Virus record (IMG/VR): IMGVR_UViG_3300042445_001485
DNA from: a virus
Taxonomy: Duplodnaviria; Caudoviricetes
Reading direction: 5' to 3' (one strand)
DNA length: 64,000 bases
Shown: positions 2,991 through 45,203 of the stretch, in pieces
Position numbering within the stretch: position 1 is the first letter of the stretch
Layout of the letters: every line of letters starts with the position of its first letter
Notes under the pieces: generated by a model
Told to the model about the DNA's origin: nothing
The model's input: only the letters and a program-made list of their open reading frames with translations
The model's database searches: none
Made by a program: the position numbers and the translations under genes

Positions 2991-3560
2991 TCATGCTACC
3001 GGTGCTGGTGCAGGAATTCCTGCGGATGCTGGTACAGCTGGAGCCGCTGCCATTGTGTCTTGACCTTGCGCTTCCAAGTTATCTGCACCTGTTTCGTATG
3101 CCGATTCAATATCTTCGGCGTCAATGCTTTCGTTTTCTAATTCCAAGCTGCCTCGTTCAATTTCAAACATTAGTTTCTTAGGCATAGTAATTTCTACCAG
3201 CCATACAGGTAGTTTACCTAATTTTGGTACTCGTGTGCCGGGTCTATAGTCATTGGGATTTTTGACTTTAATGGGGTATTCAAGAATATCTTTGCGCCAT
3301 TTAATTTCGCAGTCATATTCCATCAAACGATCTGCTCCGCGTGGATCAGGCATCAGCTGATGGGGCCACATGAATGTACAGGTTACAAAGTATTTTTCGT
3401 ACACTGGACCAACTACTAGTTCACCTGCTTTCCAGTTCTTAAACACATACATGTCAAGCTCGTCAAGTACTCGCTCAAAATCCATGAGTATACTCAAAGC
3501 ACTATTACTCAGGTAGATTTCTTTGGTATTTTCAATTACATCTTTAATATGGTTGGCCAT
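2991..3560 (-). CDS. hypothetical protein (189 aa)
   Basis: Long ORF preceded by TATAAATA late-type motif. Confidence 0.7.
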   Translation of the reverse strand: MANHIKDVIENTKEIYLSNSALSILMDFERVLDELDMYVFKNWKAGELVVGPVYEKYFVTCTFMWPHQLMPDPRGADRLMEYDCEIKWRKDILEYPIKVKNPNDYRPGTRVPKLGKLPVWLVEITMPKKLMFEIERGSLELENESIDAEDIESAYETGADNLEAQGQDTMAAAPAVPASAGIPAPAPVA

Positions 3561-40172: not shown

Positions 40173-41270
40173 TTAGAACGTGTGACGCAAGCCAACTGCG
40201 GTGCGCTTTGTTACACCAGCGGTGGCTGTGGCACCTGCGGTGTTGGTGTCAGCATCACGAGTGTCAAAACGTGCATACAAGTTGGTTCTCTTGCTGAGTT
40301 CATGATCCACACCGTAACCAAGAATTTTCTTGTCTACATTGGCTGTGCTCTTTTCATTGCTGGAACCAGTTGACCACATGACGCTGGTAGCACCAACGGT
40401 GTACTTGGCACCAAACATTTGTCCAGTCTGGTCGATAGCGGTGGCTGTGTTTTGTTTTTCTGTCCAACGACCACCATACACAGTTGCGGCACCAATCTTG
40501 TAGTTGGCAGACAACATGCTGAGAGTGTTGTTGGTACCATCAGTCAAGGCCTGTGAACCAGTGGCAATGAATGATGCAGTGGTAGTGGCCAAAGTGCCTG
40601 ACTGCTCAATGCGTTGAGCGGCATACTGCACACTCACGGGACCATTGGCATATTTTACACCATAGTCAACCACACTCTGAGCATTGACGCTGGCACTTGG
40701 TGGCACATACAAATAAGAACCACTTACACCTGCCACTGCTGGAGACTCATAACGAATGGCTCCATTGAAGCGAGTAGGTGCAGATTGTGCTGTGTGAGTT
40801 GCTGTGGCACTGTAACGAGTAAAGATGTTACCGTTTGATCCATAACCTGAACCAATGGCTGTACCAAACACAGATCCGTTGCCCCAGGCATCTAGGATGT
40901 TGGAATTCACACGACCAAGTTTCACAGTGCCCCAATTGGCTTCTGTGCCTATAAAGGCTTCTTGACCCACACCCACAGTGCCTGCTGTGGTTGAGTTGTA
41001 TGTGGTGCCTTCAACTCCGGCACCATTGATGAAATCAGGTGTTAGTTGTAGTTTGAAATTGGCACGGAGTCCGCCGCCTAGATCATCTGTACCGGCAATG
41101 TTCAGCACCGTAGTGGCTGAATTATTGGCTGCAAGACCTTTGGTGTTGACACCAGTGGCTGCATTGGTAAACAACAGGCCGGTATCAACCAGGCCAGTGA
41201 TATTGACAGCACTTTGAGCAAACACAGAGGTGGCCGCAAGTGCAATCATGATTGCGAAGATTTTCTTCAT
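40173..41270 (-). CDS. Gram-negative general porin (Burkholderiales/Neisseria type)
   Basis: Signal peptide; V-x-I-x-G-x-VD, G-x-EDLGGGL-x-A-x-F-x-L, HELSKRT-x-LY, C-terminal GLRHTF. Confidence 0.9.
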   Translation of the reverse strand: MKKIFAIMIALAATSVFAQSAVNITGLVDTGLLFTNAATGVNTKGLAANNSATTVLNIAGTDDLGGGLRANFKLQLTPDFINGAGVEGTTYNSTTAGTVGVGQEAFIGTEANWGTVKLGRVNSNILDAWGNGSVFGTAIGSGYGSNGNIFTRYSATATHTAQSAPTRFNGAIRYESPAVAGVSGSYLYVPPSASVNAQSVVDYGVKYANGPVSVQYAAQRIEQSGTLATTTASFIATGSQALTDGTNNTLSMLSANYKIGAATVYGGRWTEKQNTATAIDQTGQMFGAKYTVGATSVMWSTGSSNEKSTANVDKKILGYGVDHELSKRTNLYARFDTRDADTNTAGATATAGVTKRTAVGLRHTF

Positions 41271-41376
41271 TGAGTTTTCCTTTTTAATAAAAATCATGGT
41301 CTTTCGATCCATGTGTTATTATATAGCCTTCTGAACTGAAGAGCAATATATTCTGTTAATTTTGGCTAAATTTCTG

Positions 41377-42138: not shown

Positions 42139-42306
42139 TCAATGTTTTCGGGTAAGATTGCAAGCAGGATCTTTACAAGCTGTAATTCGTTTACGATCAC
42201 AGTCCGGGCAGTTTTTAATAACTCTGCCTAAGTTGACAGGCATAAATCTTACTATTTCATTTTTACCTGGTTTATCCCAACTGTCACATTTAGTAGCATG
42301 TATCAT
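42139..42306 (-). CDS. small Cys-rich protein
   Basis: AAGGAG SD; CPDC and C-x4-C. Confidence 0.5.
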   Translation of the reverse strand: MIHATKCDSWDKPGKNEIVRFMPVNLGRVIKNCPDCDRKRITACKDPACNLTRKH

Positions 42307-42373
42307 CGATGTCTCCTTGACATACATATACAACGCCTTAGCCTGCAAAAGGGTTTACACACTTGGTAATATG

Positions 42374-42916
42374 TTAATAATGCGAAGGATCCATTGGTCC
42401 AAGTTGATTTAGATAAGCCAGCATATCCTCATAAGTTTGGTCGTACACGGTGATTGCCAGTGTGTATCTATTTGTGGTTCCCAAAGTCAACACTGAATGT
42501 TCTACCTGTGTATTAAACAATATTGGTTGATATCTTATGTACTCAACCGGCTTGACCATAAACATGGACGAATTCTGTTCGCCCACCTTGAATAAAGTGG
42601 TGGCATCAGGGCTATCACTTAGTAGTACATTTATTCCGCATAATCTTGTTCCGCGGGAATTAATTAAATCTTTGTGAAATTTGTAATATGTTCCTGGACT
42701 AAATCTCATATAGTCAAATGCCACATTCTTAAATTCACGCATTAATTTTTTCCCAAAGAGACTGCGTTCAAATCGCATACAGCGAGCTGTGGTTATTTTT
42801 GTTGGCATCTTGTGTTGGGTTGGATTACGGTAAGCCGCTTGTAATGCGTCATAGTAGTAAGAGATTGGTATCGGGGGTAAACCAGTTGATTGATAACAGT
42901 CGTTGATATTGATCAT
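42374..42916 (-). CDS. 2OG-Fe(II) oxygenase-like DSBH protein
   Basis: YKFHKD...GINVLL...EHSVL...RYTLA; TAAATA-N4-ATG. Confidence 0.55.
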   Translation of the reverse strand: MININDCYQSTGLPPIPISYYYDALQAAYRNPTQHKMPTKITTARCMRFERSLFGKKLMREFKNVAFDYMRFSPGTYYKFHKDLINSRGTRLCGINVLLSDSPDATTLFKVGEQNSSMFMVKPVEYIRYQPILFNTQVEHSVLTLGTTNRYTLAITVYDQTYEDMLAYLNQLGPMDPSHY

Positions 42917-42929
42917 ACAGTATTTAACT

Positions 42930-43115
42930 TAAGAGAAACCCGCCGAAGCGGGTTTCCTGAGTTTCTGTTACGAGGTATGTCTTACCCTAGGCTACTTTAC
43001 GCGGCCAATGCGAACTGTGAGTCGTTAGCGTTTACTTTTTTTGCTTGATTAACGGTCATCGCCTACCGAGCGCCATTACTTGTACTCTTGACCCAATCGA
43101 TCCTGTGTCAGGCCC
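42930..43115 (-). ncRNA. ssrA: two-piece tmRNA, coding piece
   Basis: 5' GGGCCTGACACAGGATCGA; tag ORF 43029-42997 = ANDSQFALAA*; 3' end approximate. Confidence 0.93.
42935..42956 (-). terminator. hairpin at the 3' end of the tmRNA coding piece
   Basis: GAAACCCGC-TTCG-GCGGGTTTC then TCTT. Confidence 0.75.
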
Positions 43116-43116
43116 A

Positions 43117-43329
43117 TCATAAGAAAACTTCTTCACCGTGTTCATCGCATAAACTAATATAGTGTTTGTTAGGACCAACAAACTTATACATCAAGTGACC
43201 TTGCTCTTTGTCCCGCTTGGTAAGAACCAAGTAATGCACTTGACCAAATTGGTTGGGCACTTCTTGAAACTTCTCGCCGTGGAATACAGGCAATATCTCT
43301 CCGTCACTTGTTTTTACACAAATCTTCAC
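43117..43329 (-). CDS. 70-aa ORF inside the tmRNA intervening segment
   Basis: AAGGAAG SD right after the CCA, GTG start, TGA one nt before the tmRNA 5' G; fills the 225-nt spacer. Confidence 0.65.
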   Translation of the reverse strand: MKICVKTSDGEILPVFHGEKFQEVPNQFGQVHYLVLTKRDKEQGHLMYKFVGPNKHYISLCDEHGEEVFL

Positions 43330-43340
43330 AAACTTCCTTA

Positions 43341-43405
43341 TGGTGGACCTGGGCGGCACTGCCCCGCCGTCTTGAATCCTTTTCTCAGTAACAGTTTACG
43401 CTGTT
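43341..43405 (-). ncRNA. ssrA: two-piece tmRNA, acceptor piece
   Basis: T-arm GGCGG-GGCAGTG-CCGCC, then CAGGTCC-ACCA pairing with GGGCCTG (G3.U70); 5' end inferred from the promoter. Confidence 0.93.
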
Positions 43406-43411
43406 CTTGTT

Positions 43412-43440
43412 ATTATATATTTATTTTGATTGCGTGTCAA
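43412..43440 (-). promoter_or_regulatory. sigma70 promoter of ssrA with embedded late motif
   Basis: TTGACA-N17-TATAAT; spacer contains ATAAATA. Confidence 0.88.
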
Positions 43441-44113: not shown

Positions 44114-44223
44114 TCTTCAACTCTACATTGCGCGGTAATAAGACACACGGTGGCTTTATGGTTACGCAGGGTTAAGCACCCCCGGGTCTTGAATCCATTT
44201 TTATCTGCTTCATACAGCAATAA

Positions 44224-44502
44224 TCATTTGTCTCTAAAAAGGCTTTCAACCTTAGAGACAGCATCTGGTGTTGACCCTTCCGCCACACCTTGTTCTTTAT
44301 CCTTCTTTGCTTTCTCTATTGCGTCCCATTCGGCTCCGGTCTTTTCACCTCGTTTTTTCTTCACAGGAGGTTTAGATGAACGAACACCAGTGTGGCTGTT
44401 TTGGTAATCACCACTTGGTAGTTTAGTCCAGCCCTCTGCTACTTCTTCACTTTGGGCATTTTCAATAAGGTTGATATAATCGCGGAAAGATTTATTTGTC
44501 AT
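44224..44502 (-). CDS. late hypothetical protein, possible internal head protein
   Basis: TAAATA-N7-ATG; SFRDYINLIE, repeated VAEG. Confidence 0.6.
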   Translation of the reverse strand: MTNKSFRDYINLIENAQSEEVAEGWTKLPSGDYQNSHTGVRSSKPPVKKKRGEKTGAEWDAIEKAKKDKEQGVAEGSTPDAVSKVESLFRDK

Positions 44503-44512
44503 AGTATAGTAT

Positions 44513-44659
44513 TTATCCTTCACGCTTCCAAAATCTAAAAGATTCTGTGAGTTTGTTGCGGATGTATTCTTCTGTTTCAGTATCGCAAGATGCTAACTCA
44601 CTATCCACTAAATCGTGAATTTTTGTCCATAATTCATTATATAGGTCTTGCGAATCCAT
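44513..44659 (-). CDS. small acidic protein (48 aa, not in the ORF track)
   Basis: Translated by hand: MDSQDLYNELW...; AGGA upstream. Confidence 0.55.
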   Translation of the reverse strand: MDSQDLYNELWTKIHDLVDSELASCDTETEEYIRNKLTESFRFWKREG

Positions 44660-44741
44660 AATATCCTAACACGGTAGTCCTACCCTTGCGTCCAGGACCT
44701 GTTTCTCTTTGCTTCATATAGCAATAACTTACATTGTATAT

Positions 44742-45203
44742 TTATTTTCGACCAATGTCAACCGGTATACTCAATGCTTTTAATCGTTGCAATACCGCAG
44801 GCTTGATTTCCTCAGGGTAATCAATGATGTTTACCAGTTTGATGTATTGATTAGTAAAAGGAATCGCTTGTGCAATTCGTTCTTCTTCTTCTCCGGTTGC
44901 TGGTCCACCTGTATAACCCGGTAAGTTACTTTGCCAAGCATGACTTTGGACATTGGCTAGTTTTCTCACGGCTCGGCCATCAACTGTGATCATTACAGAG
45001 TTGGCAAGATCATTGAAATGGTACCAGTCTGGATTTCTTGTTAAACTTACATTACCGTAGTCACTATAATCAAAATCAGGATCAACATTGTCAGCACCGC
45101 TAACATCCAGCTTGCCACTGCGAACCATACCATTTAACCCTTGTGTAGTAGTTTTGTGGTAAAGTAGATCGGTTGATTCTGTTAGAATTTCATTTATACG
45201 CAT
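44742..45203 (-). CDS. late protein with MRINEILTE N-terminus
   Basis: TAAATA-N4-ATG; LYH-x-T...VSLTRN...EEERI pattern faintly like ADP-ribosyltransferase-type folds. Confidence 0.6.
   Translation of the reverse strand: MRINEILTESTDLLYHKTTTQGLNGMVRSGKLDVSGADNVDPDFDYSDYGNVSLTRNPDWYHFNDLANSVMITVDGRAVRKLANVQSHAWQSNLPGYTGGPATGEEEERIAQAIPFTNQYIKLVNIIDYPEEIKPAVLQRLKALSIPVDIGRK

Follow-up and report, generated by a model that had tools for sequence, protein, structure and literature searches.

A protein gene nested in the intervening segment of a permuted phage tmRNA, and the spacer as a candidate slot for small genes

The stretch of DNA analysed here, called the window, comprises 64,000 nucleotides of an uncultured virus fragment of 105 kb, which by estimated completeness represents about 30% of the genome; the stretch is present in many lake-water metagenomes. 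Its minus strand carries a full-length permuted tmRNA gene (42997-43402). The Rfam families for permuted tmRNA are RF04321, RF01849 and RF01850. RF04321 (tmRNA_permuted) matches the window over model positions 1-213 with 113.5 bits (E 2e-21, gathering threshold 47 bits), and the alpha_tmRNA model gives 73.7 bits. The unit, all of it on the minus strand, starts with a sigma-70-type promoter, TTGACA-17 nt-TATAAT (43412-43440), which agrees with the consensus at 12 of 12 positions. The acceptor piece (43341-43402) is the first half of the permuted gene; according to the Rfam alignment and a helix check it contains the 5' strands of P2, the T-arm GGCGG/GGCAGUG/CCGCC (43368-43352) and the 3' strand of the acceptor stem plus CCA (CAGGUCC-ACCA, 43351-43341, ending at 43341). 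It is followed by an intervening segment of 225 nt (43116-43340), bounded by the CCA and by G+1 of GGGCCUG and predicted to be removed at maturation. The coding piece (42997-43115) begins with GGGCCUG, the 5' strand of the acceptor stem, contains the 3' strands of P2 and ends with the tag frame GCU AAC GAC ... GCG UAA (43029-42997), placed by the sequence and the Rfam alignment, which reads ANDSQFALAA*. In the 3' tail of the coding piece (42931-42996) a GC-rich hairpin (about 42955-42936) precedes a U-rich run. This hairpin is absent from the consensus terminator scan of the window and is visible in the RNA fold, where it closes the structure of the 475-nt precursor. From promoter to hairpin the locus forms a compact unit with a predicted precursor of about 475 nt.

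The helices expected of a working tmRNA are all there. The acceptor stem, formed from both pieces, has 7 bp with a G3:U pair and an encoded CCA, the T-arm has 5 bp and an uninterrupted T-loop, and both P2 helices pair between the two pieces. The tag is of the ALAA type, with an alanine start codon and a stop.

The surroundings of the unit contain remnants of tmRNA genes. Relic 1 (44182-44225, minus strand) is a decayed second acceptor piece: a stretch of 43 nt is 97.7% identical with the 5' portion of the acceptor piece of the type found in the related locus L011, and it continues with a degenerate T-arm, an ACCA-like end and UAAAG. A 99-codon ORF stops immediately before the relic, and a 92-codon ORF begins about 50 nt beyond it. 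The two genes that separate relic 1 from the working tmRNA may once have been spacer cargo. Relic 2 (44680-44761, minus strand) is a further copy of the tmRNA promoter (TTGACA-17-TACAAT, 11 of 12 matches) with about 45 nt of the 5' end of an acceptor piece, and it now acts as promoter and leader for an ORF of 48 codons (ATG at 44659). From relic 2 to the tmRNA, the consensus scan shows no terminator. On the other side of the unit a cysteine-rich gene of 69 residues is conserved after the tmRNA (window 42139-42348, minus strand; L070 9311-9511; L011 3527-3736). In the window a 180-codon gene (42374-42916) is inserted between the tmRNA and the cysteine-rich gene, another presence/absence difference at this place. 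About 1.6 kb downstream of the tmRNA unit lies a complete porin gene of Gram-negative type (40173-41312, minus strand; Pfam Porin_4, E 1e-30). Several tmRNAs of the family also match the beta_tmRNA model, and together with the phage porin these matches hint at a betaproteobacterial host.

The intervening segment is occupied almost completely by one open reading frame. Read from the CCA it consists of UAAGGAAG, three U, a GUG at 43329, 70 sense codons, a UGA and a single U (43116). The ORF makes up 95% of the spacer; it starts 11 nt downstream of the CCA, and a single nucleotide lies between its stop and G+1. The 70-codon gene (43117-43329, minus strand) has its GTG start at 43329-43327 and its TGA stop at 43119-43117, and the gene call is backed by homologues, by omega and by an AF2 model, all described below. 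A Shine-Dalgarno (SD) sequence, TAAGGAAG (43340-43333, minus strand), adjoins the CCA. It belongs to UAAGGAAGUUU (43330-43340, minus strand), which is both SD site and 5' strand of a helix that closes the spacer, and which the MFE and the centroid structure show as paired whether the spacer or the whole precursor is folded. The 3' strand of this closing helix (43118-43130, minus strand) runs over the final codons (E-V-F-L) into the stop codon, of which it includes bases one and two, and a conserved UGAU leader precedes the predicted RNase P site. The original prediction had given this layout, and the end of the CCA, the 225 nt, the SD, the GTG, the 70 codons, the TGA and G+1 are all exact to the base. 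None of 300 mononucleotide shuffles of the window spacer produced an ORF as long as the nested one. The ORF is not a chance frame.

Homologues of the 70-codon gene were collected as proteins P0001, P0002 and P0004 and as loci L002-L012 and L104-L117. A protein search with the ORF gave one protein with 96% identity, one with 84% and one fragment; copies with 66% identity were found in viral contigs, and an exhaustive HMMER search of 1.8 billion representatives added one more relative, P0004, with 48%. Deposited phage genomes contain no DNA match to the window and no protein match to the ORF. The 84% and 66% homologues are stand-alone genes of lake phages, set in closely packed runs of small phage genes that often overlap. 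Their fetched loci yielded no tmRNA, and neither did the two searchable records with stand-alone copies, which are 18% and 41% complete.

Pairwise Nei-Gojobori estimates of omega are 0.13 for two nested copies, 0.20 for nested against stand-alone copies and 0.16 inside the 66% group; among the nested copies alone they range from 0.02 to 0.16 with dS up to 0.40. None of the copies has a frameshift or an internal stop. A 2098-nt contig from a freshwater RNA library spans a fifth allele across both junctions. Its ORF has 11 substitutions relative to that of the window, of which 10 are synonymous third-position changes and one replaces I by V. Contigs run across the ORF in two metatranscriptome assemblies; these are assembled contigs, which are no evidence of transcription, strand or transcript ends, and DNA carry-over is possible. 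The original prediction had proposed dN/dS on the ORF as a check, and had regarded an ORF that is unconserved in relatives, frameshifted or free of purifying selection as evidence against a gene. We looked for each of these and found a conserved ORF with no frameshift and purifying selection (omega 0.02-0.20), so that this objection falls away. By these comparisons the 70-codon ORF is a real gene under selection.

The AF2 (AlphaFold) model of the protein is an all-beta small barrel with a pLDDT of 86.7 in the best model and 58-69 in the other four, built from an alignment of 6 sequences. The best VIA match to this model, which has only those 6 sequences behind it, is 4hae (Z 4.6, 53 residues, rmsd 2.8), and the matches are chromo, Tudor and SH3-like domains. 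Foldseek gives weak small-barrel matches with best E values of 0.3 (pdb) and 0.14 (AFDB clusters). With fold matches this weak (Z at most 4.6, E at least 0.14) we make no function call from the structure and describe the product as a putative small beta-barrel protein. Pfam gives no match for the 70-aa protein, SmpB (PF01668), ArfB/RF-1 (PF00472) and the nuclease families included; PHROGs has no match either, and a feature search of the ESM Atlas returned only viral hypothetical proteins with scores of at most 0.77. No SmpB or RF-1 gene was found in the 105-kb record, which is about 30% of the genome.

The same cassette is found in other tmRNA genes. The 96% copy, present in two independent assemblies (L011 and L012), is nested in a permuted tmRNA that RF04321 scores with 67.4 bits. 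Two more nested copies come from other metagenomes: L104 (RF04321 113.7 bits, beta_tmRNA 123 bits) and L105 (RF04321 132.8 bits). Beyond the window the cassette thus stands at identical junctions in at least three further tmRNA backbones. All nested alleles read CCA-UAAGGAAGUUU where the spacer begins and GUUUUCUUAUGAU-GGGCCUG where it ends, and UAAGGAAGUUU is identical in every one of them. Between nested alleles the spacers are 93-96% identical in nucleotides; identity falls to 56-77% in the acceptor piece and to 51-74% in the coding piece. The backbones nearest to that of the window are L070 (92% and 82%) and L084 (89%, coding piece), and the spacers of these two, 61 and 115 nt, are without the ORF. 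A near-identical spacer amid such diverged tmRNA pieces argues that the cassette has passed from backbone to backbone, or that backbones have been exchanged around it; the route was most likely recombination via the invariant acceptor-stem sequences.

The backbones that carry the gene differ in just those places where a structure has to be maintained. The T-arm is GGCGG/CCGCC with loop GGCAGUG, GCCGG/CCGGC with loop UUCGAAU, or GGGGG/CCCCC with loop UGCGAAU, and it is different again in the variant from the RNA library. The P2 helices are CAA/UUG and GAU/GUC in one case and CUG/CAG and UGU/GCA in another, and the tags are ANDSQFALAA, ANDEVFALAA and, in L011, a tag of 27 residues. Through these compensatory changes in T-arm and P2, over three or more backbones, all helices still pair. 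This pattern argues that the gene-carrying tmRNAs are under structural selection and are not wrecks. The tag of L011 (about 3456-3540, plus strand) ends AAVLA and is followed by a double stop; ARAGORN reports similarly long tags, of about 28 residues and ending ALAA, in several members of the family.

ARAGORN called no tmRNA when it was run on the window. The long spacer is ruled out as the cause, since the program calls permuted tmRNAs with canonical tags in the nested loci L011, L104 and L105 and also calls many other cargo-bearing loci. It misses exactly the alleles with a GGCAGUG T-loop (the window, L070, L084 and L051), which Rfam scores highly, so annotation made with ARAGORN only may overlook them. 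The T-loop of L040 is also GGCAGUG, instead of the usual UUCGAAU type.

To see what other spacers contain, a pattern for the T-arm and acceptor strand was used to fetch 120 viral contigs. A paired T-arm, P2 pairing and a downstream GGGCCUG served as filters, family loci fetched earlier were added, and 89 distinct spacers were left. In 63 of the 89 regions ARAGORN, as an independent check, recognised a permuted tmRNA whose tag is canonical. The spacers are 30-342 nt long. Those free of an ORF range from 30 to 155 nt with a median of 86 nt, which is at variance with the original prediction that discarded segments measure tens of nucleotides at most. A single ORF fills at least 80% of the spacer in 22 cases (shuffle p at most 0.02 in each), and these 22 ORFs fall into 16 clusters with no detectable mutual similarity. 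They range from hydrophobic peptides of 23-26 residues up to proteins of 66, 68, 72, 86 and 101 residues. The start lies 6-23 nt after the CCA, most commonly 11, and the stop ends 1 nt before G+1 in 17 of the 22. It should be noted that the ORF rule counted only frames that stop inside the spacer and left out frames running into the mature RNA, so that the regularity of the stop position is partly an artefact. The window shows the same combination of features: one ORF fills its spacer, an SD-like site precedes the start, the stop is near G+1 and the spacers of its relatives differ.

One of the clusters matches Pfam CxxCxxCC (PF03692) above the cut-off; this cysteine-rich protein of 86-87 residues fills a spacer of 284 nt in L152 (2967-3227, minus strand) and L231 (9750-10007, plus strand). 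Spacers of 87-93 nt in L158, L225, L132, L155 and L190 encode peptides of 23-26 residues with a hydrophobic core, which start 11-14 nt after the CCA and stop 1 nt before G+1; such peptides would suit a single membrane helix. Bacteria offer little to set beside the phages: a sample of Burkholderiales has a strong permuted tmRNA in 3 of 151 genomes, with a whole span of 205-223 nt, which is too few for a contrast between phage and bacterium, and among the matches listed by a scan of bacterial genomes for the acceptor-arm pattern there were chance matches in GC-rich genomes and no permuted tmRNA, a result that carries no information on the host. Comparing ssrA loci of related phages had been proposed along with the original prediction, and the comparison shows that the content of the spacer varies, with 22 of 89 filled by ORFs from 16 unrelated clusters. 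In related phages, as far as such a survey of sequences can tell, the tmRNA spacer is a general slot for unrelated small genes.

The spacers of the family have a structure of their own. They fold as a hairpin closed by pairing of the outermost 10-13 nt at either end, which stack on the acceptor stem. Which sequences pair varies by phage (UAAAGUAUA/UAUACUUUA, AAGUAUAAUC/GAUUAUACUU and UAAAACACA/UGUGUUUUA, among others), and the closing helix is therefore kept by covariation. Over the 89 spacers the median length of the uninterrupted helix is 11 bp, whether cargo is present or not. Its 5' strand is purine-rich, the commonest starts being UAAGG, AAAGG and UAAAG, and TGAT or TAAT (UGAU or UAAU in the RNA) stands directly before G+1 in 79 of the 89, again with cargo or without. 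In the window the 3' strand AAGUUUUCUUA encodes the last residues of the protein and the conserved UGAU provides its stop. The MFE and centroid folds of the 475-nt precursor retain the T-arm and the acceptor stem and also contain a closing helix of 13 bp, which holds the SD and the stop paired with each other. The precursor so folded hides the SD, and translation could therefore be weak.

A comparison of C-termini indicates how the gene came to lie in this hairpin. Nested copies end in …GEEVFL and stand-alone copies in …GEPVEVEND or …GNQVEVEQ, and the two kinds part exactly at the start of the spacer stem. This break argues that codons 1-68 were placed into the loop of a hairpin which existed before, and that SD and stop were taken from the hairpin. 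The gene body of codons 1-68 would then derive from a family of stand-alone phage genes, and the spacer stem would have contributed the two final codons and the stop.

The explanation we favour, and which we consider somewhat probable, sees the 70-codon gene as cargo which occupies a pre-adapted slot for expression and is translated from the tmRNA precursor, with a product that is no cofactor of the tmRNA. A cargo inserted at a neutral site was among the original suggestions, and it agrees well with the stand-alone nearest homologues and with 16 unrelated clusters in the same position. The function of the 70-aa protein is probably unrelated to trans-translation. The ancestral spacer of the family would have been a hairpin with a purine-rich 5' strand (WAARG...) after the CCA and a 3' strand ending in UGAU or UAAU. 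A gene landing in its loop would therefore inherit an SD-like site, about 11 nt before the start, and a stop. The slot would suit cargo in several ways: it offers a strong promoter and a terminator, its conserved flanks permit recombination, and the sequence of the spacer is irrelevant to the mature RNA while its ends still pair. The conserved tmRNA flanks would act as homology arms through which co-infecting phages swap spacer cargo.

The cargo explanation proposes the following course of expression, in which we infer translation from the precursor, the order of the events and the processing sites. The consensus promoter would give one precursor of about 475 nt, and the unit would be bifunctional, its transcript being stable-RNA precursor and messenger at once. 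SD and start codon would emerge about 75 nt into the transcript and the pairing partner about 200 nt later; the SD would be free during this interval, so that ribosomes can load on the nascent precursor. When the 3' strand has been made and the last ribosome has gone, the 13-bp closing helix and the acceptor stem would form. The closed helix would occlude the SD and shut off initiation, and the tRNA-like domain would be offered to RNase P and the 3' trimming enzymes. The two tmRNA pieces would then be freed by cleavage before 43115 (RNase P) and by trimming of the 3' end to 43341, and the spacer would be discarded. A competition of translation with folding of the closing stem is plausible and fits the predicted anatomy, in which SD and stop both lie in the 13-bp helix. 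A more far-reaching version would have the spacer as an evolved platform for expression and exchange and the helix as a timer, with translation on the nascent precursor only and maturation held until the ribosomes clear. This version is tentative and we would not rate it as probable; if it is true, the output of protein and the supply of tmRNA are mechanistically coupled on one molecule.

Four other explanations were weighed against the cargo explanation. The original prediction proposed that maturation excises a mini-mRNA. In its full form this hypothesis has the spacer leave the precursor as a short mRNA, through RNase P and 3' processing, with a protein output that depends on maturation; 3' nibbling would turn it into a non-stop message under tmRNA control like arfA. 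A precedent is given by arfA itself (the available part of PMC10107115), and in the window, as in 17 of 22 cargo spacers, a single nucleotide separates the stop from the predicted RNase P site. In arfA-type control, processing removes the stop; here the predicted RNase P cut falls after the complete TGA. The stop is inside the excised piece, so the released RNA would not be non-stop as made. UGAU/UAAU is equally conserved in spacers free of an ORF, and the leader would therefore not have been selected for non-stop control. The SD touches the CCA, where trimming of the acceptor piece to CCA threatens it, and SD and stop are paired together in the 13-bp helix of the released hairpin. Because its SD touches the CCA and is locked in this helix when folded, the excised spacer is unlikely to be a productive mRNA, and we regard the mini-mRNA as an improbable form of expression.

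The hypothesis of a cofactor or regulator, also present in the original prediction, postulates that the protein works with the phage tmRNA, for example by binding tmRNA, SmpB or the ribosome, and that nesting ensures co-expression in a fixed proportion. The same cassette is retained in at least four different intact tmRNA alleles, and such persistence could mean a functional tie to the tmRNA instead of convenience. The predicted barrel is SH3/Tudor/Sm-like, a class often binding nucleic acids, with a best Z of only 4.6. A gene for an RF-1/ArfB-like protein also lies near the nested tmRNA in L011 and L012. The closest homologues (84% and 66%) speak against the hypothesis, being stand-alone genes with no tmRNA in the fetched loci or the two searchable records. 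So does the content of the slot, which elsewhere takes 16 unrelated ORF clusters, hydrophobic peptides and the CxxCxxCC protein among them, and Pfam, PHROGs and the Atlas provide no link of the protein to translation. The cofactor is thus unsupported as a proposal and we hold it to be quite unlikely. The RF-1-domain protein (PF00472; L011/L012 1981-2355, plus strand) has 124 aa, is short like ArfB and is encoded in a tRNA-rich region about 640 nt upstream of the nested tmRNA; a phage of this type would then carry two ribosome-rescue functions side by side. The proximity is notable but does not establish a link.

A third hypothesis considers the tmRNA dead, inactivated by the insertion, with its remains serving as promoter, UTRs and terminator for the ORF. 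The two decayed copies of the acceptor piece upstream in the window demonstrate that tmRNA parts do get orphaned before genes. The nested alleles are at variance with such a fate: they keep all tRNA-like helices by compensatory changes, together with G3:U and the encoded CCA, their tag frames are intact and end in ALAA, and their Rfam scores of 113-133 bits are level with those of ORF-free alleles. A dead tmRNA is very unlikely. A selfish cassette that spreads by homing-like drive, as the group I intron ORFs in tmRNA do, is hardly credible: near-identical cassettes within diverged backbones would agree with it, but Rfam finds no intron or ribozyme model in the region, the 70-aa protein matches no nuclease family, and flanking homology with ordinary recombination explains the pattern sufficiently.

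If the cargo explanation holds, the precursor of a stable RNA would double as an mRNA, which raises the question of how translation and folding or processing share one molecule. The unit is compact, with promoter, slot and terminator within about 500 bp, and conserved flanks of a structural RNA may serve as recombination arms for accessory genes. Phage annotation pipelines may hide a class of small proteins inside features labelled tmRNA.

tmRNA is among the best-catalogued bacterial RNAs, and the permuted gap is treated as throw-away sequence. Circularly permuted two-piece tmRNA genes of Alpha- and Betaproteobacteria and cyanobacteria were reportedly described by Keiler, Shapiro and Williams in 2000 and by Sharkady and Williams in 2004. 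The window agrees with the known permuted tmRNAs in the order acceptor piece, spacer, coding piece and in the encoded CCA, the G3:U pair and the ALAA tag. It differs from them in that their spacer is treated as discarded RNA, whereas here it is a selected protein gene with its own translation signals. Two-piece tmRNAs are established in aquatic phages, phage Melnitz being an example, and were found 53 times among 18,146 phage genomes (PMC9004378). The tmRNA database described in 2025 holds 97,179 sequences, of which 11,946 are permuted and only 79 come from phages (PMC11915505). The available part of its description mentions just two oddities among the spacers, a single intact tRNA-Ala gene and, in the longest gene (1152 bp), a repetitive element (PMC11915505); these are functional or large inserts in a position equal to that in the window, and no protein gene is among those described there. 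Full-text searching of the literature brought up no account of protein genes located in the permutation gap, which does not prove that none exists. The RNA family is known; the use of its spacer for coding, with an SD and a stop taken over from the spacer helix, seems not to have been described.

Three known systems are comparable in part. Protein ORFs in tmRNA precursors are described, in the available part of the database paper, only as homing endonucleases, some of them LAGLIDADG, in group I introns of the T-loop (PMC11915505). Like the ORF in the window they lie inside RNA that is removed from a tmRNA precursor; their site is the T-loop, removal is by self-splicing and they serve the mobility of the intron itself, whereas the ORF in the window sits in the permutation gap and would be removed by tRNA-type end processing. 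In the window the T-loop is uninterrupted, and no intron family is among its Rfam matches. The intervening sequences of 23S rRNA encode a small protein (Pfam PF05635, 23S_rRNA_IVP). They resemble the window in that a stable-RNA gene has an excised spacer carrying a small ORF; the host RNA, the processing enzyme (RNase III for 23S) and the protein family differ, the 70-aa protein being without a Pfam match. Phage morons are independently acquired genes inserted between phage genes, with signals that are borrowed or their own. The spacer cargo is like them in consisting of small, unrelated accessory genes, present or absent in close relatives and exchanged by recombination. Unlike that of morons, the landing pad in the window lies within a structural-RNA gene, and it is the helix and the leader of the pad which give the SD and the stop.
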